This document shows positions 6,773-62,796 of a stretch of DNA of 64,000 nucleotides, in pieces. The notes below the pieces were generated by a model that did no database searches, was not told the DNA's origin, and saw only the letters and a list, made by a program, of their open reading frames with translations. This stretch comes from Patescibacteria group bacterium (lineage in GTDB: Bacteria; Patescibacteriota; Minisyncoccia; Phycocordibacterales; UBA9973). Numbering within the stretch: position 1 is the stretch's first letter; each line of letters starts with the position of its first letter. Where the stretch lies: contig JAZJXT010000001.1 of assembly GCA_040390725.1 (NCBI GenBank), forward strand, positions 85,070 through 149,069. The letters run 5' to 3'. The position numbers and the translations under genes are program-made.

Positions 6773-6857
6773 GGAGGCGTCGCATAGCGGTCTAGTGCGC
6801 AGACCTGGAAAGTCTGTGTGGGGAAACCCACCGAGAGTTCGAATCTCTCCGCCTCCG
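6773..6857 (+). tRNA. tRNA-Ser (anticodon GGA) with long variable arm
   Basis: Acceptor GGAGGCG/CGCCTCC; anticodon loop CTGGAAA; long extra arm; T-arm GAGAG-TTCGAAT-CTCTC; CCA not encoded. Confidence 0.85.
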
Positions 6858-6916
6858 CATTGACAAGTTATATATTCTGTGTTTACTATTTTAGTACTTT
6901 GATTACTAAGGATTAC

Positions 6917-27445: not shown

Positions 27446-27472
27446 AAATATTTTAAATTAATTTTTTAATTA

Positions 27473-27526
27473 CCCCCTCCGCCTTCGGCACCTCCCCCTT
27501 AATCAAGGGGGAGGAAGGGTGGGGGT
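27473..27526. repeat. GC-rich palindromic element (variant D) in the nrdA-nrdB intergenic spacer
   Basis: cctccccctt-aatc-aagggggagg perfect 10-bp palindrome, then aagggtgggggt, preceded by ccccctccgccttcggca; same C-stem/G-stem/GGGTG architecture as copies A-C. Confidence 0.6.
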
Positions 27527-30202
27527 CTACTGACAACTCTCGCACATCAATCTTTCTTGCGGATCAATAGGACAAGTGTTCGCGACTTTTTCTACTTTTT
27601 TAACCATTAAATCAACTTCACTGTCAGATGGGAGGTTTGGAGCAACAATAGATTCTTCTACTTTTATTTCTTCAATTTTTATTTCTTCTGGTTTTTTTTC
27701 TCTCAAAGCTGCAAAACCTTTTCTGCCTTGAGCTTCAGATTTGTTCACATGCGTCGTTGATTGCTCAGCGGAGTGGCGAGGTTTCATATGCAAATAATAA
27801 GTAGTCTTCAAGCCTTTGTCCCAAGCAGTAGTATAGATGTTCATAATCTCATCTATGTCACGGATATCTAAATACATATTGCGGGAAATTCCCATGTCTA
27901 CCCATTTTTGGGCACGAGCTGCGACTTCGATATATGCATAAGCTGAAACAGAGAAAGATGTTTTGTAAATTCTTTTTATGTGATCAGGAATTTCAGAAAT
28001 ATTTTCCAAGTCTCCGTGATTTTCAAGAATTTTCTCGCGAGTTTTTTCCCAAAGATTTTCTTTTTGCAAAGCTTCGACGAGGTTTGGATTGATTTCTAAA
28101 TATTTTCCGGAAATTTTATTACGAGAGAACATTTGTGCAAAGCGAGGATCAATACCAGGGGAAGTGCCGGCGACGAGTCCGATATTTGCATTTGGAGCGA
28201 TAGCGAGGAGGGTAGCATTACGCATTCCTTTTTTAACTTTTGCTCGCAAGGTGTCCCAATCAAGCGCTGGCAATAATTTTGCAGATTCTTTGCGCACTGT
28301 CAGCTCGCGGTCGCGCATTTTTTCAAGTTTCGCCAAAGTATCTACCGGGACATTGCCTTTGGACCATTCAGAACCTTTAAAGTTTTTATATGAACCTCTT
28401 TCTTCTGCCATGTTCGCGCTTTCATCTATGGACATATACGAAATAAATTCAAAAACTTGATCAGCGAAATCATAAGCTTCGTTGTCTTCATAAGAATAGC
28501 CTAATTTCTCGATAGAGTCTGCAAATCCCATCAATCCTAGGCCTACAGCTCTGTTTTCAGAGTCCGCACGGCGAGCCTCTGGGATAGGAAGTTCATTAAT
28601 ATCTACGAGGTTGTCGAGCTGGCGAGTTGCTAGGCGAGTGCTTTGTTCTAACCTGTGCCAATCAATTTGTCCGTTTATAATGTGCCTAGACATATTGATA
28701 GAGACTAAATTACAAACTGCAACGTTGTCGCGATTGGTAGGCAAAGTGACTTCAGTGCAAAGGTTTGAACAGTGTATAGTGCCAGTATTATTATTTAAAG
28801 CGCGAACATTTATGGAGTCTTTCCATGTGAGCCATGGGTGGGAAGTAGTCTCAAGAGAAACCAAAATGTTTTTGTATTGCTGGCGAGCAGGCATAACGTG
28901 GAAAATTTTCATTTTCTTTTGTTTTGCCATTTCTACATATTCTTTGTAGCGTTTGGAAAAATCTTCTCCATAAAGTTCATTCAAATCAGGAACTTCTTTC
29001 GGATCAAATAAATACCATTCATCACCAGCTATGACGCGTTTCATAAATTCATCAGAAATATAAACTGCGGTGTTGGCTGTGCGAGCTCGACGATAATCAT
29101 CACCGTTGTTTTGTTTAAGGTCTAGGAAATCTTGGAAATTTAAATGCCAATTTTCCATGTAGAAACATAGTGCACCTTTTTTCTTGCCACCTCTTTGGAC
29201 TGCGCGAACAGCAGAGTCGATAATGTGCATAAATGGAATTGGTCCAGAAGAAACTGTGTTGTTGGATTTTAATAGGGAACCTTCAGCGCGGAGCTTGGTA
29301 ACGGAAAGACCGATGCCTCCTGTAGCCTTGGAAAGCAACAAAACATCTGAAACAGTTTTCCCGATGTGTTCCATGTCGTCATGAATTTCCATCAAGAAGC
29401 AGTTTGAAAGTTTTGGGTGTGGAGTACCGGCGCCGATATTTGTAGAACCAGCAGAAAGATATTCGAGTGATGACATTTTTTCATAAAACTTTTTTGCCCA
29501 GACATTCGGCTCGCTTTCATTTAAAGACATACCCATAGCCACACGCATCCAAAAATATTGAGGAGTTTCGAGTGGGGATTGTTTCTCGTCTTTCATTAAG
29601 TATCTGTTTTGCATTGTAGAAAGACCGGAGTACTTGTATAGGTCGTCTCTGTCGATATTTAAAGCATTAGCAAGTTCGTCTAAATTAAACATTGTTGCGA
29701 GTCTTTTATCGAGCAAATTCTTCTCAACTGCGTTTAAAATGTATTCTTTGAAATGGCTAGCGTGAAGTTTACCAAATTCTTCCTTGGAAATAGGCTTGGC
29801 CTCATTGTCTGGGTCATAATCACCCATAACTTTTTTGTAAATAACCTTCAAAAGTAGGCGAGTAGCTATTTTATCGAACTCTAAATCGTATTGAGTGTTT
29901 TGAAGAGCGGCATTTATGGTGGCGAGGTCGAGTTCTTCAGTAGTGATGCCATCATATAGAGTGATGCGAGTCTCAGTCGCTATCTGAATAACCTTGCTGA
30001 TAGGGTCATTGATGCCATAGCAAGCGCGTTCGATAGATTTGTTGATTCTATCGGCGTTAAATTGAACTTTTGAGCCGTCTTTTTTTGTAACTGTTGTTGT
30101 CATAGGGTATTTATTATACTCCTCCATTAAACTGTTATGCAAGGTGGATAACTCAAAAAATATCACAAGGAAAAGAGGGCCTAACTTCGTCAATATGTGC
30201 AC
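27527..30202 (-). CDS. nrdA: ribonucleoside-diphosphate reductase alpha subunit (class I) with ATP-cone
   Basis: ATP-cone (VTKKDGSKVQFNADRINKSIERAC); RNR catalytic core; C-terminal CESCQ tail. Likely true start at an internal Met (MEEYNKYP or MTTTV) about 25-33 codons downstream of the listed GTG. Confidence 0.9.
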   Translation of the reverse strand: MHILTKLGPLFLVIFFELSTLHNSLMEEYNKYPMTTTVTKKDGSKVQFNADRINKSIERACYGINDPISKVIQIATETRITLYDGITTEELDLATINAALQNTQYDLEFDKIATRLLLKVIYKKVMGDYDPDNEAKPISKEEFGKLHASHFKEYILNAVEKNLLDKRLATMFNLDELANALNIDRDDLYKYSGLSTMQNRYLMKDEKQSPLETPQYFWMRVAMGMSLNESEPNVWAKKFYEKMSSLEYLSAGSTNIGAGTPHPKLSNCFLMEIHDDMEHIGKTVSDVLLLSKATGGIGLSVTKLRAEGSLLKSNNTVSSGPIPFMHIIDSAVRAVQRGGKKKGALCFYMENWHLNFQDFLDLKQNNGDDYRRARTANTAVYISDEFMKRVIAGDEWYLFDPKEVPDLNELYGEDFSKRYKEYVEMAKQKKMKIFHVMPARQQYKNILVSLETTSHPWLTWKDSINVRALNNNTGTIHCSNLCTEVTLPTNRDNVAVCNLVSINMSRHIINGQIDWHRLEQSTRLATRQLDNLVDINELPIPEARRADSENRAVGLGLMGFADSIEKLGYSYEDNEAYDFADQVFEFISYMSIDESANMAEERGSYKNFKGSEWSKGNVPVDTLAKLEKMRDRELTVRKESAKLLPALDWDTLRAKVKKGMRNATLLAIAPNANIGLVAGTSPGIDPRFAQMFSRNKISGKYLEINPNLVEALQKENLWEKTREKILENHGDLENISEIPDHIKRIYKTSFSVSAYAYIEVAARAQKWVDMGISRNMYLDIRDIDEIMNIYTTAWDKGLKTTYYLHMKPRHSAEQSTTHVNKSEAQGRKGFAALREKKPEEIKIEEIKVEESIVAPNLPSDSEVDLMVKKVEKVANTCPIDPQERLMCESCQ

Positions 30203-31999: not shown

Positions 32000-34030
32000 T
32001 TAAACAGCGATAATGACAGGAATAACCAAAGGTCTTTTTGCTGTTTTTTGGTAGAGATATTTTGATACAGTTTCTCCTAAGCTATTTTTAATATAGTCAA
32101 AGTCCATAGAGCTGGCATTGGGATGATTGTCTACTTCGAGTCGCGCAGGCATTTTGGCTGTAGCATCTTCGACTGATTTTTTAATAATTATTCGTACTTG
32201 ACGCAAGAGTTCTTGGTTTTCTTTTAGGTAAACAAAACCTCGTGAAATAAGGTCAGGGGACTTTTTAAGTCTACCTGTTTTTTGATCAATCAAAACCATA
32301 ATAACGAACATACCGTCTTGGGCTAGCATGACTCGGTCGCGGATAACTACGTCCTGTACATCACCGACAGATATGCCGTCTACCATCATCAGGCTCGAAG
32401 GGGCTTTTTCTTTTCGTACGGATAGTTTCTCGCCGTCGGGTGATATTTCAATAATAGATCCGTTGTCAGGAACTACGATGTGGTCTTCTCGCATGCCGAG
32501 TTCCATCGCGAGTTCTTTGTGAAGTTCCAAATGGTAGTGATTGCCGTGAATAGGAATAAAGAATTTCGGATGAGTTTTCCTGTGCAACCATTTTACATCT
32601 TCTTTATTACCGTGACCTGTCGCATGCACAAAGTCTTCACCGGGGGTGCGATAACTTATTATTTTTACACCTTGTCTGGAAAGTGCGTCTTTCATTTTTT
32701 GAACTTGTCGTTCATTGCCCGGCACAATAGAAGCGGAAAGAATAATAGTGTCGCCTTGGCGGATAGTAAATTTTTTGTCAGTTTTATTTGCTGCGCGATT
32801 TAATCCAGAGAATTCTTCACCTTGTCCGCCAGTTGTTAAAATAATTATTTTGTTTGGCGGATATTCATCTATTTCTTCCATGGAAATAATCGTGCCTTTT
32901 TTAGGAGTGTATAGTCCAGCTTCGAAAGCGACTTCCATGTTGGACTTCATTGAACGTCCGTTCAAAACAATTTTTTTATTTAAGTTTTCGGCGATTTGAA
33001 TAACTTTCACAAGGCGGGTAATGTGCGAAGCAAAAGCTGCGATAATCATCCTGCCGTTTACTTTTTTTATTAAATTCTCCAATCCTTGATGCACTTTTAT
33101 TTCCGGTAATGCAAAACCTTCGTTTTCAATATTTGTAGAGTCAGTCAATAACATAAGCACATTCATCTTATCGAAAATAGAATATTCTTTTTCTTCTTCG
33201 TCGGATACTATGCCGTCGACTTGGTCGAGTTTATAATCTCCGGGTGTTACGATATTTCCATGTGGAGTTTCAATAATTATTCCCATTGAGTCGGGGATAG
33301 TGTGAGTGACGCCGAAGAATCGGACTTTTATTTTTCCGCACATTATGACTTCGTCTTTTTCCACGACTTCTGTTTTCATCGCTGGCAAGTGGGGGAATTC
33401 TGCTTGTCTTTTTTTCATCATTAAGATGGAAAGATTTCTAGAATACACAGTAGGATTACCAATACGAGAAAGCACTAAAGGCACTCCACCGATATGGTCG
33501 AGGTGTCCGTGAGTTATGAGCATTGCGCGGATTTTGTCTTTGCGCTCTTCGAGGTAAGTAGTGTTTGGGATGACATAGTCTACTCCAGGAGTTTCTTCAT
33601 TTGAGAAGAACATCCCGGCGTCAATGACGATAATATCATCACCGATTTCTATTGCGGTCATGTTTTTACCGATTTCTTCGACTCCGCCGAGGGGAATTAT
33701 TCTGATTACGCCTTCTCCTGGAGGGGGAATCTTGCTATCCATTGTACTTCTGAAAGGTCTAGTGTTGCCACCTGGACGTCCTGCGGCACTCTGGCGACTT
33801 TTCCCAAATTTGGAATATTGGAAAGTTTTTTTTACCATTTGTTGTCTCTTGTCACCTGAAGTGTGACTAGGTGAATGATAAGGCGCGCGTGCATGCAGGG
33901 GGTGTGCTGGTGCCTGTGCCGACGTTGTCACATTTTTATTCTCTTCTTTTTTACCGTCAACACTGATTGCGCTGAAAGGCAGTCTGTTTTTTTTCTTCAT
34001 CATTTTATTTCTTTTTCTTTTTATTCTCAC
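32000..34030 (-). CDS. rnj: ribonuclease J (metallo-beta-lactamase/beta-CASP) with a basic N-terminal extension of about 110 aa
   Basis: HxHxDH motif (LITHGHLDHIGG); beta-CASP and C-terminal domain; canonical RNase J start would be near MDSKIPPPGEGVIRIIPLGG, but the frame stays open for a further 100 codons of Lys/Arg/Pro-rich sequence. Confidence 0.85.
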   Translation of the reverse strand: MRIKRKRNKMMKKKNRLPFSAISVDGKKEENKNVTTSAQAPAHPLHARAPYHSPSHTSGDKRQQMVKKTFQYSKFGKSRQSAAGRPGGNTRPFRSTMDSKIPPPGEGVIRIIPLGGVEEIGKNMTAIEIGDDIIVIDAGMFFSNEETPGVDYVIPNTTYLEERKDKIRAMLITHGHLDHIGGVPLVLSRIGNPTVYSRNLSILMMKKRQAEFPHLPAMKTEVVEKDEVIMCGKIKVRFFGVTHTIPDSMGIIIETPHGNIVTPGDYKLDQVDGIVSDEEEKEYSIFDKMNVLMLLTDSTNIENEGFALPEIKVHQGLENLIKKVNGRMIIAAFASHITRLVKVIQIAENLNKKIVLNGRSMKSNMEVAFEAGLYTPKKGTIISMEEIDEYPPNKIIILTTGGQGEEFSGLNRAANKTDKKFTIRQGDTIILSASIVPGNERQVQKMKDALSRQGVKIISYRTPGEDFVHATGHGNKEDVKWLHRKTHPKFFIPIHGNHYHLELHKELAMELGMREDHIVVPDNGSIIEISPDGEKLSVRKEKAPSSLMMVDGISVGDVQDVVIRDRVMLAQDGMFVIMVLIDQKTGRLKKSPDLISRGFVYLKENQELLRQVRIIIKKSVEDATAKMPARLEVDNHPNASSMDFDYIKNSLGETVSKYLYQKTAKRPLVIPVIIAV

Positions 34031-40517: not shown

Positions 40518-40537
40518 TAATTTATTTCAATATCTTG

Positions 40538-40610
40538 AGCCGGCAGGGGGATTCGAACCCGCGACCTTCGCTTTACAAAAGCGTTGCTCTACCAACTGAG
40601 CTATGCCGGC
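40538..40610 (-). tRNA. tRNA-Thr (anticodon TGT)
   Basis: Reverse complement GCCGGCATAGCTCAGTTGGTAGAGCAACGCTTTTGTAAAGCGAAGGTCGCGGGTTCGAATCCCCCTGCCGGCT: 7-bp acceptor, D-arm, anticodon loop TTTGTAA, T-loop TTCGAAT; one T-stem mismatch by my reading. Confidence 0.8.
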
Positions 40611-45804: not shown

Positions 45805-46576
45805 AAAAGCTAAACAGAAAAAACTTAAAAATATCGCTATCGGCGTAATTGTTTTATTGTTTCTAATTTATTTCCGAGCCGGGATTTTTGGCGGGCTTTC
45901 GACTGCTTCTCATTTTGTTTTTCGACCTGTGATTATTTTAGGCAATAATATAGGTGAAAAGTTTTCAAATACTCGAGCGTATTTTCTTTCAAAACATTCT
46001 CTACTTTTAGAAAATGAAAATTTAAAAACACAAATATCAGAAAGCGAAGCGTACAGAGCGAATTATGCTTTGGTTGTCGATGAAAATAATAAATTGAAAG
46101 AAACTTTAGGCAGGAAAAATGAAAAAATGAATTTTGTTCTTTCTGCGATTTTATCCAAGCCAAATCAATCACCGTATGATACTCTAATAATAGACGCAGG
46201 TAAAAATCAAAATATAAATATTGGCAATGTGGTTTTTGCATTAGGTGATGTACCTATCGGTAAAGTTGCCGAAGTTTATGCAAATTCTTCAAAAGTTATT
46301 TTATTTTCAAATCCGGGAGAAAAGACAGAAGTTGTTGTGGGAGCTAAAGATAGTTTTATGGAAATTGTCGGCCGAGGAGGAGGGAATTTTGAACTTATTT
46401 TACCGAGGGACTTTGTGTTAGATGCTGGCGCTGAAGTTCGTTTGCCGGGCATTAATCCATACATTTTGGCTGTGATGCAAACTATCGTATCCGACCCCCG
46501 CGACTCGTTCCAAAAAGCTCTTTTCACGAGTCCTGTAAACGTGCAAGAACTAAATTTTGTGGAGGTGGAAAAATAA
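45785..46576 (+). CDS. mreC: rod shape-determining protein MreC
   Basis: N-terminal TM, coiled coil, C-terminal beta domains; immediately downstream of and overlapping mreB. Confidence 0.8.
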   Translation: MSYHLDKKAKQKKLKNIAIGVIVLLFLIYFRAGIFGGLSTASHFVFRPVIILGNNIGEKFSNTRAYFLSKHSLLLENENLKTQISESEAYRANYALVVDENNKLKETLGRKNEKMNFVLSAILSKPNQSPYDTLIIDAGKNQNINIGNVVFALGDVPIGKVAEVYANSSKVILFSNPGEKTEVVVGAKDSFMEIVGRGGGNFELILPRDFVLDAGAEVRLPGINPYILAVMQTIVSDPRDSFQKALFTSPVNVQELNFVEVEK

Positions 46577-47868
46577 TGCATTTTAAAATACAAAAAAAGT
46601 TGGAAAATAGTTTGGGGCGGGCGGGGGTTTTGGAAACTCCTCACGGGGAGATTTTGACGCCGGCATTTGTGGCTGTGGGCACCAAGGCTACGGTGAAATC
46701 TTTAACTCCGGAACAAGTCCGTGATGCTGGCACACAAGTCGTGCTCGGTAATACTTACCACTTATTTTTACAACCCGGGGATGAAATAGTCCGCGATGCG
46801 GGAGGTATTGGGAAATTTATGAATTGGCATGGTCCCACAATGACGGACTCTGGGGGGTTCCAAGTTTTTTCTTTGGGTGTTGCTTATGGAAAAGATATTT
46901 CAAAAGTTGTTAAAATTACTGACCCGTCGCTAATGATTCCTGAAAGGTTTGATGACAGTGATGCGCCACGGCTCGCAAAAATAGGGCAGGATGGAGTTTC
47001 TTTTAAGTCGCACCTCGATGGCAGTATTCATTATATAACTCCGGAGAAATCAATTCAGATTCAGCACAACCTCGGCGCGGATATTATTTTTGCTTTTGAT
47101 GAATGCACCAGTCCGGCGGAAGATGCAAAATATCAAGAAGAGGCTTTGGAGCGGACGCATATTTGGGCAAAGAGGTGCTTGGAGGAGCACAAAAGATTAG
47201 CTGGCGAAAAAGATTCTTTCTTTACAGGGTCGCTGTCTGTGCCTGCTGGCACAGCGCTGCCTCTCGGCTCGTCAGCCTGCGAGACACCCCGCAAAGAAAA
47301 ATCTTTTTCACCAGCTCTCTTTGGGATCGTGCAAGGCGGGCGAGATGAAAGTTTGCGAAAGAAATCAGCGGAATTTATTTCCAGTTTGGATTTTGATGGG
47401 TTTGGTATCGGTGGGAGTTTTGCCAAAGAAGATATGTCCACAGCAGTAAAATGGGTGAATGAAATTTTGCCGGAAGAAAAGCCTAGGCACTTGCTTGGCA
47501 TCGGTGAGCCGGAAGATTTATTTATGGGCATAGAAAACGGCGTGGATCTTTTTGATTGCGTCTTGCCGACGCGCCTAGGCAGGAATGGCACTATATATAC
47601 AAAGAATGGAAAAATAAGTATTACGAATACAAAATTTAGAAATGATTTTACGCCGATTGAAAATGACTGCGAATGTTATTCTTGTAAGAACTATACAAAA
47701 TCTTACATCGCGCATTTGTTTCACGGTAAAGAAATGCTCGCGGGAACTTTAGCTTCTACTCACAATTTGTATTTTATTGTAAATCTGGTAAAAAAAATCC
47801 GCCAAAGTATTTTGGACGGTAACTTTCACGAATTTAAAAAAGAGTTTTTGAGTAATTATTTAAAATAA
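46576..47868 (+). CDS. tgt: queuine tRNA-ribosyltransferase with a GC-rich in-frame insertion of about 30 aa
   Basis: VLETPHGEILTPAFVAVGT; catalytic Asp regions; Zn site CECYSCKNY...H; 430 aa, about 40 aa longer than typical Tgt. Confidence 0.9.
   Translation: MHFKIQKKLENSLGRAGVLETPHGEILTPAFVAVGTKATVKSLTPEQVRDAGTQVVLGNTYHLFLQPGDEIVRDAGGIGKFMNWHGPTMTDSGGFQVFSLGVAYGKDISKVVKITDPSLMIPERFDDSDAPRLAKIGQDGVSFKSHLDGSIHYITPEKSIQIQHNLGADIIFAFDECTSPAEDAKYQEEALERTHIWAKRCLEEHKRLAGEKDSFFTGSLSVPAGTALPLGSSACETPRKEKSFSPALFGIVQGGRDESLRKKSAEFISSLDFDGFGIGGSFAKEDMSTAVKWVNEILPEEKPRHLLGIGEPEDLFMGIENGVDLFDCVLPTRLGRNGTIYTKNGKISITNTKFRNDFTPIENDCECYSCKNYTKSYIAHLFHGKEMLAGTLASTHNLYFIVNLVKKIRQSILDGNFHEFKKEFLSNYLK
47226..47318 (+). 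other. GC-rich hairpin-containing in-frame insertion inside tgt
   Basis: gtgcctgctggcac and tctcg...cgaga palindromes; GC far above the local average; encodes FTGSLSVPAGTALPLGSSACETPRKEKSF between WAKRC... and ALFGIVQGG, where E. coli and Z. mobilis Tgt have about 14 residues. Confidence 0.55.
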
Positions 47869-48247: not shown

Positions 48248-50344
48248 ATGCAAGGAAAATTCAAATTAAAACTTCCTTTTGAGCCGGCCGGGGATCAACC
48301 CAAGGCTATTTCGGCTTTGGTAAACGGCTTGAAAAAAGGGATGAGGAAGCAGACGTTGCTGGGGGTGACGGGTAGTGGCAAGACTTTTACCGTAGCGAAT
48401 GTTATTCAGCAAATGCAGAAGTCTACGTTGATAATAGCTCATAATAAAACTTTGGCAGCGCAACTTGCCCAAGAATACAAAAGTTTTTTTCCGGAAAATG
48501 CCGTACATTATTTTGTTTCATATTATGATTATTATCAGCCGGAAGCCTACATGCCGATGACGGACACATATATAGAAAAGGATGCACAGATAAATAAAGA
48601 GATAGACAGGTTGCGACATGCGAGTACGCAAGCCCTTTTGACGCGCAAAGATGTGATAATAGTGGCTTCGGTTTCTTGTATTTACGGTTTGGGAAGTCCG
48701 GAGGAATACAGGGAAGAGAATTTGGAAATAAATGTGGGTGATAAAATTTCTCGTACGGATTTGATGTCGCGTTTAATTGCGATGCATTTCGAAAGGACAA
48801 ATGCGGACTTGACTCCGGGAACTTTCCGCGCGCTTGCGAATAAAATAGAAATAATGCCGGTGTCTGAGAATTTTTTATATAGCATTTCTTTGGAAAAAGA
48901 TAAAATAGAAAATATAATTAGAATTGATCCGGTAAGCTCAAAAGTTTTAAGTGAAGAAAAAAGTATTTTTATTTTTCCGGCAAAACATTTTATAACAAAT
49001 AAATCAAAATTAGAGCTTGCCATAAAAAATATAAAATCTGAGCTGAAAGAGCAGTTAAAAAAGTTCGATAAAGAAGGGAAAATTTTGGAAGCGGAAAGAA
49101 TAAAAAGAAGAACGAATTATGATGTGGCGATGCTTCGCGAGGTGGGGTATTGTTCCGGTATTGAAAATTACTCTCGACATTTATCTGGTAAAAAAGCCGG
49201 TGAAGCACCGGAGACTTTGCTATCTTATTTTCCAAAAAAAGAAAGTCAGGAAAGTACTCTTCGTCGCTCGCACTCTGTCCTGGAAGGGCAAGGTTCATAT
49301 GTTCGTAGCGAAGGCTTCTCCAAGTACTTTCCTGACTTTCTTACTATTATTGATGAATCGCATGTGACTGTGCCACAAATCGGTGGTATGTATGCGGGTG
49401 ATGCTTCGAGAAAAGGTACATTGGTTGATCATGGTTTTCGTTTACCTTCAGCGAAAGACAATCGCCCTCTGAAATATGATGAATTTGAAAAAAGAGTCGG
49501 GCAAGTTATTTATACTTCGGCGACGCCATCAGAATTGGAAAGAAAAGAAAGTGCGCAAATCGTGGAGCAGATTATTCGTCCTACAGGGCTTGTTGATCCG
49601 GAGATAGAGGTGAAGCCGGTAATTGCTTCTAAGAAATATCCCGGTCAAGTGCAAGATTTTATCAAAGAAGCGGAAAAGGAAATAAAAAAAGGCGGGCGTG
49701 TGATAGCCACGACCTTGACCAAAAAAATGGCGGAAGATTTATCGGCATATTTGAAAGATAAAAAAATAAAATCAGAATATGTACACAGTGATATAAAAAC
49801 AATTGAACGCATAAAAATTTTAACGGAATTCCGAAAAGGGAAATTTGATATTTTAGTCGGGGTGAATTTGCTCCGTGAAGGATTGGATTTGCCGGAGGTG
49901 ACATTGATAGGAATTTTAGACGCGGACAAGGAAGGTTTTTTGCGCAGTGAAGTTTCTCTCATTCAGACTATCGGTCGCGCAGCTAGGAATGTCGAAGGGC
50001 GAGTGATTCTTTATGCGGATCATATTACCGGATCGATGAAGCGCGCGATGGATGAGACGAATCGCAGACGGGTGATACAAGTGGCTTATAATAAAAAACA
50101 CAACATAACTCCGAAAACCATTATCAAAAAAATTCAAGACATTACCGAAGGTATGGATACTATTCACGACAAAGCCGTGCGTTCCGAACTCGATTTAGAT
50201 ACAAAACTTTTCGCTAAAAATCCATCAAAACTTGTGAAATTAAAAGAGCGTCAAATGTCTGAAGCTGTAAAAGCTCTCGACTTTGAAACAGCAGCTATTT
50301 TGCGTGATGAATTAAAGATCCTAAGGGAGAGATTAGTGAAATAG
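48248..50344 (+). CDS. uvrB: excinuclease ABC subunit B with an in-frame insertion of about 30 aa
   Basis: Walker A (GVTGSGKTFT); helicase motifs; DESHVTVPQIGGMY; C-terminal UVR domain; 698 aa. Confidence 0.95.
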   Translation: MQGKFKLKLPFEPAGDQPKAISALVNGLKKGMRKQTLLGVTGSGKTFTVANVIQQMQKSTLIIAHNKTLAAQLAQEYKSFFPENAVHYFVSYYDYYQPEAYMPMTDTYIEKDAQINKEIDRLRHASTQALLTRKDVIIVASVSCIYGLGSPEEYREENLEINVGDKISRTDLMSRLIAMHFERTNADLTPGTFRALANKIEIMPVSENFLYSISLEKDKIENIIRIDPVSSKVLSEEKSIFIFPAKHFITNKSKLELAIKNIKSELKEQLKKFDKEGKILEAERIKRRTNYDVAMLREVGYCSGIENYSRHLSGKKAGEAPETLLSYFPKKESQESTLRRSHSVLEGQGSYVRSEGFSKYFPDFLTIIDESHVTVPQIGGMYAGDASRKGTLVDHGFRLPSAKDNRPLKYDEFEKRVGQVIYTSATPSELERKESAQIVEQIIRPTGLVDPEIEVKPVIASKKYPGQVQDFIKEAEKEIKKGGRVIATTLTKKMAEDLSAYLKDKKIKSEYVHSDIKTIERIKILTEFRKGKFDILVGVNLLREGLDLPEVTLIGILDADKEGFLRSEVSLIQTIGRAARNVEGRVILYADHITGSMKRAMDETNRRRVIQVAYNKKHNITPKTIIKKIQDITEGMDTIHDKAVRSELDLDTKLFAKNPSKLVKLKERQMSEAVKALDFETAAILRDELKILRERLVK
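49234..49331 (+). other. inserted segment of about 90 nt inside uvrB with terminal inverted repeats (gaaagtactcttcg ... cgaag..agtactttc), flanked by tattttcc / tactttcc
   Basis: Encodes KKESQESTLRRSHSVLEGQGSYVRSEGFSK between LSYFP and YFPDFLTIIDESH; E. coli UvrB has FDYLPADGLLVVDESH here with no such segment. Confidence 0.5.
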
Positions 50345-55899: not shown

Positions 55900-56265
55900 A
55901 AAGTCTTGAGCTGGATAATCGCGTCCTGAGCTTGTCGAAGGATGAGGAAAGTCCGAACATGGCGAATCCAATTTATTGGAAGGGAATGGTAATGGGTAAT
56001 TCCCATACAGGGCAACCTGCGAGGTGCGAGCAGAGACGCCGATGCCGAAAGGCTAGGGCTCCGACGTAACGTCGGAGCAGTCCAGTGGAAACACTGGGGT
56101 GAAACGGCTAAATCCTTACCCCCATGCAAGATCGTGTCCGCCCACAGCTACACAGTTGCTGGCGGAAGAATCGCTCGACTCCGACGGTAACGTCGGAGCT
56201 AGATAAATGATTATCGTTCCGACCTCGTGTCGGGATACAGAATTCGGCTTATAGGCTTAAGACAA
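55900..56265 (+). ncRNA. rnpB: RNase P RNA (bacterial type A)
   Basis: P4 hallmark GAGGAAAGTCCG near the 5' end and ACAGAATTCGGCTTA near the 3' end; P1 pairing gtcttgag/cttaagac; TATAAT at 55892-55897 about 6 nt upstream; terminator immediately downstream. Confidence 0.85.
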
Positions 56266-56271
56266 AACATG

Positions 56272-57561: not shown

Positions 57562-58113
57562 TTATTTTTGAGGTTTTTCTTCTTTTACTTCTTTTGCATG
57601 GTCGATAAAAAGAATACCATTCAGATGGTCAGTTTCATGTTGAAAAATTTGCGCCAATAGACCGCTTGCGCCACGAGTAAACTTTTTTCCATTTTCATCG
57701 TATGCCTCGGCTGTGGCTTTGATTGAACGATATGTTTTACCATAGAGCCAGCGCACGGACAGGCATCCTTCAGGTAGCCATTTTTTCTCACGGGATAATT
57801 TTGATATTTTTGGATTTATGAAAACAAGATGTTTTATTTCTTTCGGCTCCCTCTCCTTATTAAGGAGAGGGTTGGGGTGAGGTTCTTCTTTTTTCATAAA
57901 ATCATCTTCAAATATTTTTCCGGAAACTAGAAAAATACGCAATGAGTAGCCTATTTGCGGGGCAGCTATGGCCACACCATCACTTTGGCTCTTGAGAGCT
58001 TCTTCCATTTCTTTTAAGATTTTTTTTATTTTTGGAGTGCAAATATCTTTTATAGGCACCTCTTTGGCGACTTCTCTGAGCACTTTTTCTTCTTTTTGAA
58101 CAATATCCTTCAT
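57562..58113 (-). CDS. def: peptide deformylase
   Basis: Motifs G.aA.QIG, EGCLSV and HETDHLNG; 183 aa. Confidence 0.9.
   Translation of the reverse strand: MKDIVQKEEKVLREVAKEVPIKDICTPKIKKILKEMEEALKSQSDGVAIAAPQIGYSLRIFLVSGKIFEDDFMKKEEPHPNPLLNKEREPKEIKHLVFINPKISKLSREKKWLPEGCLSVRWLYGKTYRSIKATAEAYDENGKKFTRGASGLLAQIFQHETDHLNGILFIDHAKEVKEEKPQK
57849..57884 (+). repeat. GC-rich palindromic mini-element (copy B) inside the def ORF, antisense to the gene, translated in frame
   Basis: ccctctcc-ttatta-aggagaggg + ttggggtgaggtt; read on the minus strand as EPHPNPLLNKEREPKE within the def insertion loop. Confidence 0.7.
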
Positions 58114-62044: not shown

Positions 62045-62166
62045 ATGATTCCCGTTAGAAGCCGCGGTCGCAGGGAATTTAAATAATATGAAAAAATATA
62101 ACATTATTTATTATAAATATAATTATGCTTGTCGTGGTGTTTTGACCGCGACCTGCTTCTAACGGG
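62045..62166 (+). promoter_or_regulatory. long-range inverted repeat (about 19 bp with a bulge) bracketing an AT-rich spacer of about 65 nt and overlapping the start codon of the downstream MBL-hydrolase gene; candidate 5' leader structure
   Basis: cccgttagaagc..cgcggtc (62048-62067) pairs with gaccgcg..gcttctaacggg (62143-62164); TATACT box at about 62031 upstream; spacer contains a 24-codon micro-ORF (MKKYNIIYYKYNYACRGVLTATCF). Confidence 0.4.
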
Positions 62167-62796
62167 ATGATAATTACATATTTCGGCAAGCAATTTTTTA
62201 AGATAAGCCAAGGCGAGATGGTCGTGGCTTTTAATCCCGTTTCTAAAAGTTCCAAGTCCGGTGTCTCGGCAAAGTTTGGCGCGGATATTGCATTGGTTAC
62301 TACCAATCATCCTGACTACAACGGCCTCGAACAACTCTCGCACGGCGAGCGTGTTCCTTTTGCCATCACTGGCCCGGGGGATTACGAAGTGAAAGAAATT
62401 TTCGTAAAAGGCCTCATGTCTGATTCCGAACTTTCCGGCAAAAAATATATTAACACTATTTACTCATTGGCTGTGGATAATATAAACATTGTTTTCCTTG
62501 GTGCTCTTTCTAATCCGGAAATTTCCAAAGAAGCTCGCGAGGCGATAAATGAACCCGATATTTTATTTGTGCCTGTCGGAGGTAACGGCTTGCTTGACGC
62601 AAAACAATCCGCAAAACTTGCTTCTTCACTCGAGCCGAAGCTTGTCATACCGATGGATTACGATACTGCATCTTTAAAATCTTTTTTGAAAGAAATGGGT
62701 GATGAAAAAGCCGAAGTAATGGATAAATTAACTCTAAAAAGAAAAGACCTAGAAGGTAAAGAGGGGGAAGTGATGGTTCTATCAGCGCAAGGATAA
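62167..62796 (+). CDS. MBL-fold metal-dependent hydrolase (UPF0173-like)
   Basis: N-terminus IITYFGKQFFKI..GEMVVAFNP resembles UPF0173 KITWLGHSAF.I...ILIDPF; C-terminal LFVPVGGNGLLDAKQSAKLASSLEPKLVIPMDYDT. Start may be the later Met at 62218. Confidence 0.6.
   Translation: MIITYFGKQFFKISQGEMVVAFNPVSKSSKSGVSAKFGADIALVTTNHPDYNGLEQLSHGERVPFAITGPGDYEVKEIFVKGLMSDSELSGKKYINTIYSLAVDNINIVFLGALSNPEISKEAREAINEPDILFVPVGGNGLLDAKQSAKLASSLEPKLVIPMDYDTASLKSFLKEMGDEKAEVMDKLTLKRKDLEGKEGEVMVLSAQG

Follow-up and report, generated by a model that had tools for sequence, protein, structure and literature searches.

A candidate palindromic mobile element in frame in the tgt gene of a Patescibacteria bacterium, with related copies in other housekeeping genes

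In-frame palindromic selfish DNA is known as a kind. The Rickettsia palindromic elements (RPEs) are palindromes of about 150 bp that fall into ten families, with 44 integrations in the genes of R. conorii. Nearly half of these are in frame, encoding a conserved peptide that is compatible with the fold of the protein (PMC10969869). Here, we analyzed a 64,000-nucleotide stretch of a Patescibacteria genome (contig JAZJXT010000001.1 of assembly GCA_040390725.1; hereafter, the window), in which the gene for queuine/preQ1 tRNA-ribosyltransferase (tgt) carries a GC-rich palindromic insert at 47199-47316. We consider it likely that this insert is a copy of a small, nonautonomous, translated palindromic mobile element of about 105 to 130 bp that circulates in Paceibacteria. 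We refer to this element as family A. The RPEs appear to be its closest analogue in behavior; we claim no membership by sequence. What sets the present case apart is its hosts in the Candidate Phyla Radiation (CPR), a core shaped as a three-way junction, the use of mirror-image reading frames, and an insertion hot spot shared with other families.

The resemblance to RPEs extends to palindromes of about 100 to 150 bp in several families, a small AT-rich genome, and a host-dependent bacterium. In both cases, the palindromes lie in frame in many unrelated housekeeping genes, are read as a conserved peptide, occupy fold-tolerant sites, and have no known transposase (PMC10969869). In our data, family A was a palindrome at many loci, in frame in unrelated genes and at a surface-loop site. 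It differs from RPEs in belonging to another phylum, with a different host composition, and in its core, a three-way junction whose unpaired bases hardly vary and whose two hairpins are hypervariable and covary. Furthermore, family A uses only two frames, both of its orientations share a single loop with unrelated families, its outer arms are site specific, and its copy number per genome is apparently low.

Other short repeats are similar in part. MITEs (miniature transposable elements with inverted repeats; e.g., ERIC, Correia, RUP, and Nezha) are likewise short, noncoding, and nonautonomous, with inverted-repeat arms and a hairpin-forming transcript. They occasionally lie in frame within genes (PMC10969869), and two identical intergenic copies of family A have 3-bp direct repeats at the ends. 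However, MITE termini are conserved and bound by a transposase, whereas the termini of family A vary and its center is conserved. About 90% of MITEs are intergenic (PMC11602168), whereas most family A copies in low-GC hosts lie within genes, and the loci inspected revealed no parent insertion sequence. The main text of a MITE census covering 183,232 genomes makes no mention of the phyla considered here (PMC11602168). Likewise, the literature that we searched in full text held no description of such elements in CPR, Patescibacteria, or Parcubacteria; the wider literature may hold one.

The repetitive extragenic palindromes (REPs) with their RAYT proteins, together with IS200/IS605, offer a different parallel, in that recognizing a single DNA strand in its folded form would account for unpaired bases that are conserved next to stems of free sequence. 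Family A also has extragenic copies at gene ends in GC-rich Kaiserbacteria-type hosts, and it contains the tetranucleotide CGTC; CGTC-tagged REPs have been described (PMC3733652). In contrast, a REP is a single hairpin of 20 to 40 bp with the tag at the foot of its stem, whereas family A is 105 to 130 bp long, is located in frame within the genes of low-GC hosts, and carries CGTC as a loop in a 63-nt junction. No RAYT or TnpA gene turned up on the partial-genome contigs, among which no search was aimed at RAYT. The GC clusters of yeast mitochondria and the double-hairpin elements of Allomyces are GC-rich palindromic or double-hairpin mobile elements of AT-rich genomes that can sit in frame. 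These elements are organellar and eukaryotic and have no sequence relationship with family A, so the comparison is one of analogy only.

The host gene and the insert, together with the parts of the insert used below, are as follows.

46576-47868, + strand: tgt, the host gene, from the open reading frame (ORF) listing, 430 aa
47199-47316, + strand: whole palindromic element of family A, 118 nt, delimited by inverted repeats, fold, and GC maximum
47199-47226, + strand: 5' outer arm, differing in sequence among copies yet complementary to the 3' arm
47227-47289, + strand: conserved core of 63 nt, GGGTCGCTGTCT-hp1-AGCGCTGCCTCTCG-hp2-TGCGAGACACCC, a three-way junction
47227-47230 and 47286-47289, + strand: stem P1, GGGT paired with ACCC
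Within the core, + strand: stem P2, CGC paired with GCG, with a TGTC bulge
47238-47253, + strand: hairpin hp1, with an invariant T-A closing pair, a hypervariable 5-bp stem (47239-47243 and 47248-47252), and a TGCT loop
After hp1 and before P3, + strand: CT junction
47259-47285, + strand: P3 plus hp2, where P3 is the pair G47259-C47285 and TCTC/GAGA (47262-47265 and 47281-47284)
47266-47269 and 47274-47277, + strand: 4-bp variable stem of hairpin hp2, with a CGTC loop
47290-47316, + strand: 3' outer arm, its last bases being host codons P246-A247, before the conserved LFGIVQGG strand

The closest homologues of the protein (Tgt) belong to PF01702, are named Tgt, and come from metagenome-assembled genomes of Patescibacteria, Paceibacterota, and Nomurabacteria. 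The Zymomonas mobilis enzyme (TGT) also matched (phmmer, E 2e-97), leaving residues 203-237 of the Tgt studied here unmatched between its chain residues 183-186. An earlier note on this DNA, made from the letters alone, had described a GC-rich, hairpin-bearing, in-frame insertion at 47226-47318. That insertion is real, and its bounds can be widened to 47199-47316. Between the WAKR and ALFGIVQGG segments, where the note had pointed to extra residues, we counted 46 residues, and the span from W to GG is 59 residues, compared with 25 to 33 in 16 of 80 close orthologues. The GC richness that had seemed conspicuous turned out to be the maximum of the entire 64 kb, at 0.70 in 60-nt windows (47218-47301), against 37.5% for the window as a whole. 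Two short palindromes had also been pointed out, gtgcc..ggcac (47239-47243 and 47248-47252) and tctcg..cgaga (47262-47266 and 47280-47284). Both exist, but they are inner parts of the larger 118-nt palindrome, so the unit exceeds the 93 nt first proposed. The antisense ORF at 47133-47591 and the alternative plus-strand ORF at 47103-47348 are both present as described.

The element spans the codons from L208 (third base) to A247 and translates as AGEKDSFFTGSLSVPAGTALPLGSSACETPRKEKSFSPA, with DSFFTGSLSVPAGTALPLGSSACETPR as the expected tryptic peptide. Its inverted-repeat arms (47199-47218 and 47297-47316, 20 nt each) are 90% complementary, and the whole forms one long stem that is topped by two apical hairpins (RNA minimum free energy, -60.1 kcal/mol). 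None of 200 shuffled sequences was equally stable (z = -4.80 for RNA; z = -5.5 with DNA parameters). In a GC-corrected scan of approximately 6,400 windows of 120 nt, the tgt element ranked sixth in excess stability and an element in uvrB, described below, ranked third. At the Tgt site, CCTGCGCT, which encodes Pro-Ala-Leu, pairs with the upstream AGCGCAGG. This outermost stem was common to a family A copy (L002) and to a copy of an unrelated family C (L015).

To characterize the distribution of the element, we took 80 orthologous tgt loci from GTDB species representatives, extracting the loop from 79 of them and from the window. A search with the core (nhmmer) recovered 25 copies in the 80 loci plus the window. 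Of these, 23 were at the Tgt loop, in forward orientation in 18 cases and reversed in 5, and another (L054) was on the opposite strand, within an unrelated ORF of 304 aa. The remaining copy (L075 11249-11311) marked a second insertion site in Tgt, immediately following the CxCxxC zinc-binding motif, where family A was also present in L112 (4248-4310) and L125 (671-733), in the context CYVC|SAPEAFFSGSLS..ETPHKKTSGA|SRYSRAYIAHLF, so that some Tgt genes hold two copies. A second set came from metagenomes, where an exact-pattern scan followed by nhmmer yielded at least 129 copies on at least 120 contigs; proportions among host genes describe this sample only. The ORFs that span these copies form at least 26 clusters and represent at least 13 recognizable host families, which together with intergenic DNA hold the element in both orientations. 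Among the matches listed, Tgt accounted for 43 (at two sites), UvrD/PcrA for 23 (at least three sites), TsaD for 13, and Def for 3. Hosts with one to three copies each among the matches listed (by Pfam) were an LTD protein, a class I aminoacyl-tRNA synthetase (aaRS), UvrC, RecG, Fmt, a pseudouridine synthase, the DnaE C terminus, and UvrB, along with unannotated ORFs; IleRS is also named among the hosts. The suggestion of a coding-tolerant insertion element thus held, because the core recurs in numerous other genes and genomes.

Further copies were found across genomes but not within the window. Neither nhmmer nor a covariance model run with filters off found a second family A copy in the 64 kb; the covariance model scored the tgt copy at 97.9 bits, and the next, unrelated, match reached 13.3 bits (E 0.8). 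The repetition is therefore visible only by comparing genomes. Viral carriers were not detected, with no match to the exact pattern in IMG/VR and no blastn match in 50,697 phage records.

Copies occurred in genomes of 38% and of 55% GC. On contigs of 50 to 58% GC they were mostly intergenic (L091, L100, L103, L122, L143, L164, L178, L197, and L199, among others), whereas in low-GC hosts they were mostly genic. One of the GC-rich contigs, L103, belongs to Candidatus Kaiserbacteria as judged by its RpoC. The motif pair CCGCTCG (5') and TCTCGCT (3') bracketed 16 of 37 noncoding copies and 1 of 101 coding copies, and in two of the GC-rich examples (L164 and L091) TCTCGCT lay within a further hairpin, TCTCGCTAC..GTAGCGAGA. 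This bracket may represent a target site or a duplication of one, or it may belong to a larger composite element.

Conservation of the core was a property of nucleotides and of base pairs. In an alignment of 25 copies (A1), the core was gapless, with 35 invariant columns spread across all three codon positions; a further alignment (A3) was gapless as well. RNAalifold predicted 37 pairs from these copies, 24 of which had compensatory double changes, including every one of the 14 pairs of the outer stem. We evaluated the structure on 124 copies (111 distinct) and found 94.4% of cells paired, compared with 37 to 53% when partners were slid by one to three columns. Double-changed cells numbered 572, compared with 54 to 95 in the slid controls, and none of 500 shuffles matched the covariation score. 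Each pair of the hp1 stem showed 23 to 57 double changes and 1 to 3 unpaired cells across the 111 distinct copies. For example, the pair at alignment columns 41-67 was G-C in 81 copies, C-G in 27, and unpaired in 2. The hp2 pairs also covaried. Approximately 98% of cells in the variable core stems were Watson-Crick, and wobble pairs, at about 1%, were no commoner than other mismatches. Meanwhile, the unpaired junction and loop bases of the core were nearly invariant. The search pattern for the metagenome copies fixed 24 core positions and left free the stems as well as the last (3') third of the core, so invariance of the core is to be judged on alignment A1, which is independent of the pattern.

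Two further readings of the stems were considered and set aside. Beside the core, C.A mismatches outnumbered G.T mismatches (62 versus 15), which gives no evidence for a single folding strand; the excess probably stems from a pyrimidine-rich 5' arm facing an A-rich 3' arm. The hp1 stem was likewise rejected as a guide to the target, because copies at one and the same Tgt site have many different hp1 stems.

The reading frames of the copies were sharply restricted. Among the 105 listed copies within ORFs of at least 200 aa, 51 were in frame +0 and 49 in frame -1, leaving 5 for the other four frames. Copies in short ORFs and intergenic DNA used all six. Frame +0 yields the peptide GSLS..ALPLGSSACETP and frame -1, on the opposite strand, yields GVSQADEPRGSA..DSDP. 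In the 111 distinct cores, the two used frames contained a stop codon in 1 and 4 cases, compared with 20 to 40 in the other four, and shuffled cores contained one in 24 to 32% of cases, near the values of the unused frames. The peptides of the two used frames are rich in Gly, Ser, Ala, Pro, Asp, and Thr, whereas those of the other four are rich in Arg, Cys, and Trp. From the columns of A1 and the codon layout, we worked out that flipping a +0 copy about the center of the palindrome places it in frame -1. By our codon mapping, the two orientations give identical codons in the outer arms and in the hp1 stem. An open but unread mate frame was therefore rejected as a sign of frequent flipping, since the palindromic parts encode the same codons either way.

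At the protein level, the 120 closest Tgt homologues (76 to 87% identity, excluding the query's own sequence) ranged from 395 to 480 aa, and the variation lay mostly in this loop. Many loops read GSLSxxxxxALPLGSSACETP, others read GVSQADEPRGSAxxxxxDSDP, which is the reverse-complement reading, and still others held an unrelated peptide or none. The tgt ORF was unbroken in all 80 loci. In a Tgt-loop copy on a 1.5-kb contig (L198 1189-1267), the element is in frame +1 and the tgt ORF is broken after it, reflecting either a pseudogene or a homopolymer sequencing error.

The earlier note had expected the insertion to fall in a surface loop of the TIM barrel, and the structural model agrees. An AlphaFold2 model built with 55 homologues (mean predicted local distance difference test [pLDDT], 75; predicted template modeling [TM] score, 0.80) aligned with Z. 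mobilis TGT structures at a target-normalized TM score of 0.85 to 0.90. In this model, residues 214-242 have a pLDDT below 50 and form a coil between helix 184-215 and strand 247-252 (ALFGIV). In (beta/alpha)8 barrels, catalytic residues lie at the C-terminal ends of the strands, and the Gln of GIVQGG is a substrate-binding residue in Z. mobilis TGT. Because the coil leads from a helix into a strand, the insert would be on the face of the barrel opposite the active site. Compared with Z. mobilis TGT, Tgt has a further inserted segment, ~30 aa in length, at 46852-46968 (residues ~93-131, ..VAYGKDISKVVKITDPSLMIPERFDDSDAPR..). That segment is kept in all close homologues, is not GC-rich, and is modeled with a pLDDT below 50. 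It looks like a fixed lineage-specific loop, not a palindromic element.

As a contrary case, the earlier note had named a longer loop common to all close relatives together with a segment lacking other genomic copies. Neither applies: other copies exist, as described above, and the loop was variable. In 80 sequences, it was empty in 16 and held family A in 23, and the rest carried at least seven other recurrent classes or unclassified inserts. The filled classes were enriched in GC (medians of 0.39 to 0.54, compared with 0.29 in empty loops) and, apart from the two-member class H (median z of -2.2), formed strong hairpins (median z of -4 to -7.5, compared with +0.45 in empty loops). On a neighbor-joining tree of Tgt built without the loop, insertion states were fully interspersed, although the tree was star-like and poorly resolved. 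On the same poorly resolved tree, the nearest neighbors of the window were two empty sites and one family E site.

The window itself contains further families, as the earlier note had surmised from its ligA and def insertions. The insert in uvrB represents a second family and that in def a third, and there are at least eight in the Tgt loop.

49239-49342, + strand: family C element in uvrB (48248-50344), in frame, unrelated to family A, with 20-bp perfect arms
~57830-57880, - strand: family D insert in def (57562-58113), an in-frame hairpin, CTCCCTCTCCTTATTAAGGAGAGGG, with peptide EEPHPNPLLNKEREP; PHPNPLLNKEREP

The uvrB element folds at -45.1 kcal/mol (z of -4.9) and encodes ..ESTLRRSHSVLEGQGSYVRSEGFSKY.. 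/ ..STLRRSHSVLEGQGSYVRSEGFSKY... Its DNA aligns with the Tgt-loop inserts of four loci (L013, L015, L019, and L071), with the family peptide RRSHSVLEGQ... Family C has the same design as family A, namely, a conserved core within a variable self-complementary stem. The def insert occupies the site where the Def genes of L128, L156, and L179 carry family A. It resembles an intergenic GC-rich segment of the window (27468-27535) and the PLLxKEG inserts of six Tgt loops (L022, L038, L049, L059, L060, and L078).

The ends of the copies behaved differently from the core. Subfamilies shared about 20 nt of core-adjacent arm across genes, such as GGAGAAAATTCCTCTTTT, which L054 has in common with the Tgt copies of L010 and L002. 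The outermost 3 to 10 bp of the palindrome varied by site and reached into host codons. Three identical intergenic copies had the ends CTGTCCGGGG...CCCCGGACAG (115 bp). In genic copies, no target-site duplication was evident. Inheritance of the element was only loosely tied to that of its host gene, with a weak correlation between similarity in the variable parts of the element and similarity of the host tgt (Spearman coefficient, 0.17). Host tgt DNA from the same genomes was 71 to 84% identical, while 35 columns of the core did not vary. Three identical copies (L083, L159, and L105) share 70 nt of 3' flank and have differing 5' flanks, suggesting either that copies recombined or that the assemblies are chimeric at the repeat. 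In L103, an ORF flanked by two inverted copies was considered as a transposase and rejected, as it encodes a methyltransferase; its neighbors are a PD-(D/E)XK nuclease and a DsbA-like protein.

On the mobile-element explanation, the copy in tgt would have lodged in frame in the helix-to-strand loop before ALFGIVQGG, where it would be translated as a disordered loop of about 35 residues rich in Gly, Ser, Ala, and Pro. It would act as DNA, not as part of the mRNA. The conserved unpaired bases, exposed on a folded single strand or a cruciform, could be the recognition surface for a putative protein that moves or maintains the element. The copies that we see would be the survivors, namely, insertions that fell in one of the two benign frames and in a surface loop able to tolerate them, and such selection would explain why the same loops (Tgt, UvrD, TsaD, and Def) are repeatedly occupied. 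Template switching between inverted-repeat arms homogenizes and extends the arms, inverts the spacer, and keeps hairpins perfect (PMC8604942, PMC13100816, PMC8794818). If it operates on family A, it would best account for outer stems that are perfect yet lineage specific, for Watson-Crick pairing throughout, for site-specific extension into host codons, and for the presence of both orientations at a given site. The near invariance of the unpaired bases falls outside this account and points to sequence-specific recognition by the putative protein. Homologous recombination that carries filled alleles between species may add to the pattern. The recurrence at a few loops may thus reflect selection of tolerant sites, transfer of filled alleles, or targeting of preexisting palindromes.

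Several observations weigh against a mobile element. Apparent copy number is low, with one copy in the 64-kb window and one copy outside Tgt in approximately 1.2 Mb of Tgt flanks. Most copies lie at the same few orthologous sites, and part of their spread could therefore be vertical descent or allele transfer, not transposition. Terminal sequences of 8 to 12 nt differ between sites, unlike those of a classical MITE. Convincing target-site duplications, of 3 bp (CTA and TAG), were found in two intergenic copies only (L083 and L102), and no transposase, recombinase, or invertase was seen beside the copies inspected. Finally, translation is deduced from frame statistics.

A bolder version holds that the invariant junction bases are the recognition site of a putative CPR enzyme, such as a hairpin-specific transposase, recombinase, or invertase, that acts on folded single-stranded or cruciform DNA. 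We regard this version as rather unlikely. If true, it would define a novel class of mobile DNA addressed by structure, one that actively flips and moves inside essential genes, and the housekeeping proteins of Patescibacteria would have interchangeable, possibly phase-variable, loop cassettes.

It is also possible, although we find it improbable, that the element is a programmed intragenic inverton, in which an invertase, acting within populations, flips the 63-nt core between its inverted repeats of 20 to 30 bp and toggles Tgt, UvrD, TsaD, and Def between two loop isoforms. Intragenic invertons, in which inverted repeats flank a coding segment, are documented in other bacteria (bioRxiv 10.1101/2023.03.11.532203). 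Like them, family A is present in both orientations across species, with orthologues of Tgt, TsaD, and UvrD differing in orientation at one and the same site, and its two used frames are exact inversion mates, both open in nearly all copies. Moreover, copies identical at the subfamily level are found in opposite orientations (L012 versus L029 and L033), and the most similar pairs of elements are oppositely oriented. However, the openness of the mate frame is partly automatic, given that the hp1 stem and outer arms encode the same codons both ways. We found no pair of near-identical host flanks with opposite cores, in an ungapped comparison that was weakened by a 1-nt register shift, and no invertase gene near the copies inspected. 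Family A is a dispersed repeat and not a gene-specific switch, and a modeled loop that is disordered and would lie far from the active site offers no obvious phenotypic use for two isoforms. Spontaneous inversion of the spacer by template switching would give the same pattern without a dedicated enzyme (PMC8604942).

An RNA element in the tgt mRNA, whether a regulatory hairpin, a site for RNase or ribosome pausing, a self-cleaving ribozyme, or a small self-splicing intron, would fit the very stable fold, and conserved unpaired bases beside covarying stems are the classic signature of a structured nucleic acid. We nevertheless judge it very improbable. Genic copies among the matches listed are half sense and half antisense (51 versus 49), in hosts that are functionally unrelated. 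Wobble pairs are as rare as mismatches, with no enrichment on the transcribed strand; reversed copies, read as mRNA, have 9 A.C and 4 G.U. Two frames are kept open and the other four are not, which would be pointless if the RNA were excised. No Rfam family matched on either strand, with nothing at the gathering threshold in the whole window and, at E of 10 or below, only chance matches to miRNA-precursor hairpins at the locus (25.2 and 15.5 bits, compared with cutoffs of 80). A hammerhead-like motif on the reverse strand, sought by eye, was rejected, with CUGACGA present and GAAA absent. Taken together, Watson-Crick-only stems, the lack of wobble bias, equal orientations, and the absence of an Rfam match argue against a regulatory RNA, ribozyme, or intron and agree better with a palindrome that is kept up at the DNA level.

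It is extremely unlikely that the insert is a lineage-specific functional loop selected at the amino acid level, for example, for contact with tRNA or a partner. The GSLS..ALPLGSSACETP motif is indeed kept in many Tgt homologues, and the ORF is intact in all 80 loci. However, conservation is at the nucleotide level and includes third codon positions, and the residues that vary coincide exactly with the ones that the covarying stems encode. Orthologues have reverse-complement or unrelated peptides, or none in 16 of 80, the same DNA is found in unrelated proteins, and the loop has a pLDDT below 50. Invariance across codon positions together with empty loops argues that the peptide is not what the host selects. 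Almost no weight can be given to a palindrome made locally at each site by template switching without mobility, which can create hairpins (PMC8794818) and would suit site-specific outer arms that absorb host codons, but which is already contradicted for the core, whose ~35 invariant bases of 63 could not have come about separately in 13 or more gene families and in intergenic DNA of genomes with 38% and 55% GC; it remains as an explanation for the outer arms only.

If family A is mobile, the Rickettsia phenomenon would have a second, independent counterpart, found in another host-dependent bacterial group. Patescibacteria would then harbor several families of selfish palindromes inside essential genes despite their tiny, streamlined genomes, which would support the view that, where genomes are small and AT-rich and leave little intergenic space, mobile DNA is driven into protein loops that tolerate it. 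On a practical level, the inserts add length to marker-protein alignments (Tgt, UvrB, UvrD, TsaD, Def, and aaRS) and scramble them, they create spurious antisense ORFs, and they may seed assembly breaks or chimeras. They also offer a natural system for studying the template-switch evolution of palindromes and for seeking a structure-specific DNA enzyme in CPR.

The window has other hairpins and structured RNAs. Within ligA (379-2409), a perfect 25-nt hairpin at 1105-1129, TCTGCCGAAGCCTTGCTTCGGCAGA, encodes SAEALLRQT and corresponds to the ligA insertion of the earlier note. The second most over-stable 120-nt segment of the window (z of -4.3) is intergenic, at 62050-62170, upstream of the ORF at 62167-62796, and consists of a hairpin with 13-nt arms, TCCCGTTAGAAGC / GCTTCTAACGGGA, and an AT-rich center. 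A hairpin-forming stretch with a GC content of 0.63 (33865-33929) lies in the low-complexity N-terminal extension of a 676-aa ORF (32000-34030, - strand) and may be a further inserted element. The RNAs noted in the window are a bacterial class A RNase P RNA (55903-56267, 117.7 bits), tRNA-Ser(GGA) at 6773-6858, and tRNA-Thr(TGT) at 40537-40610.

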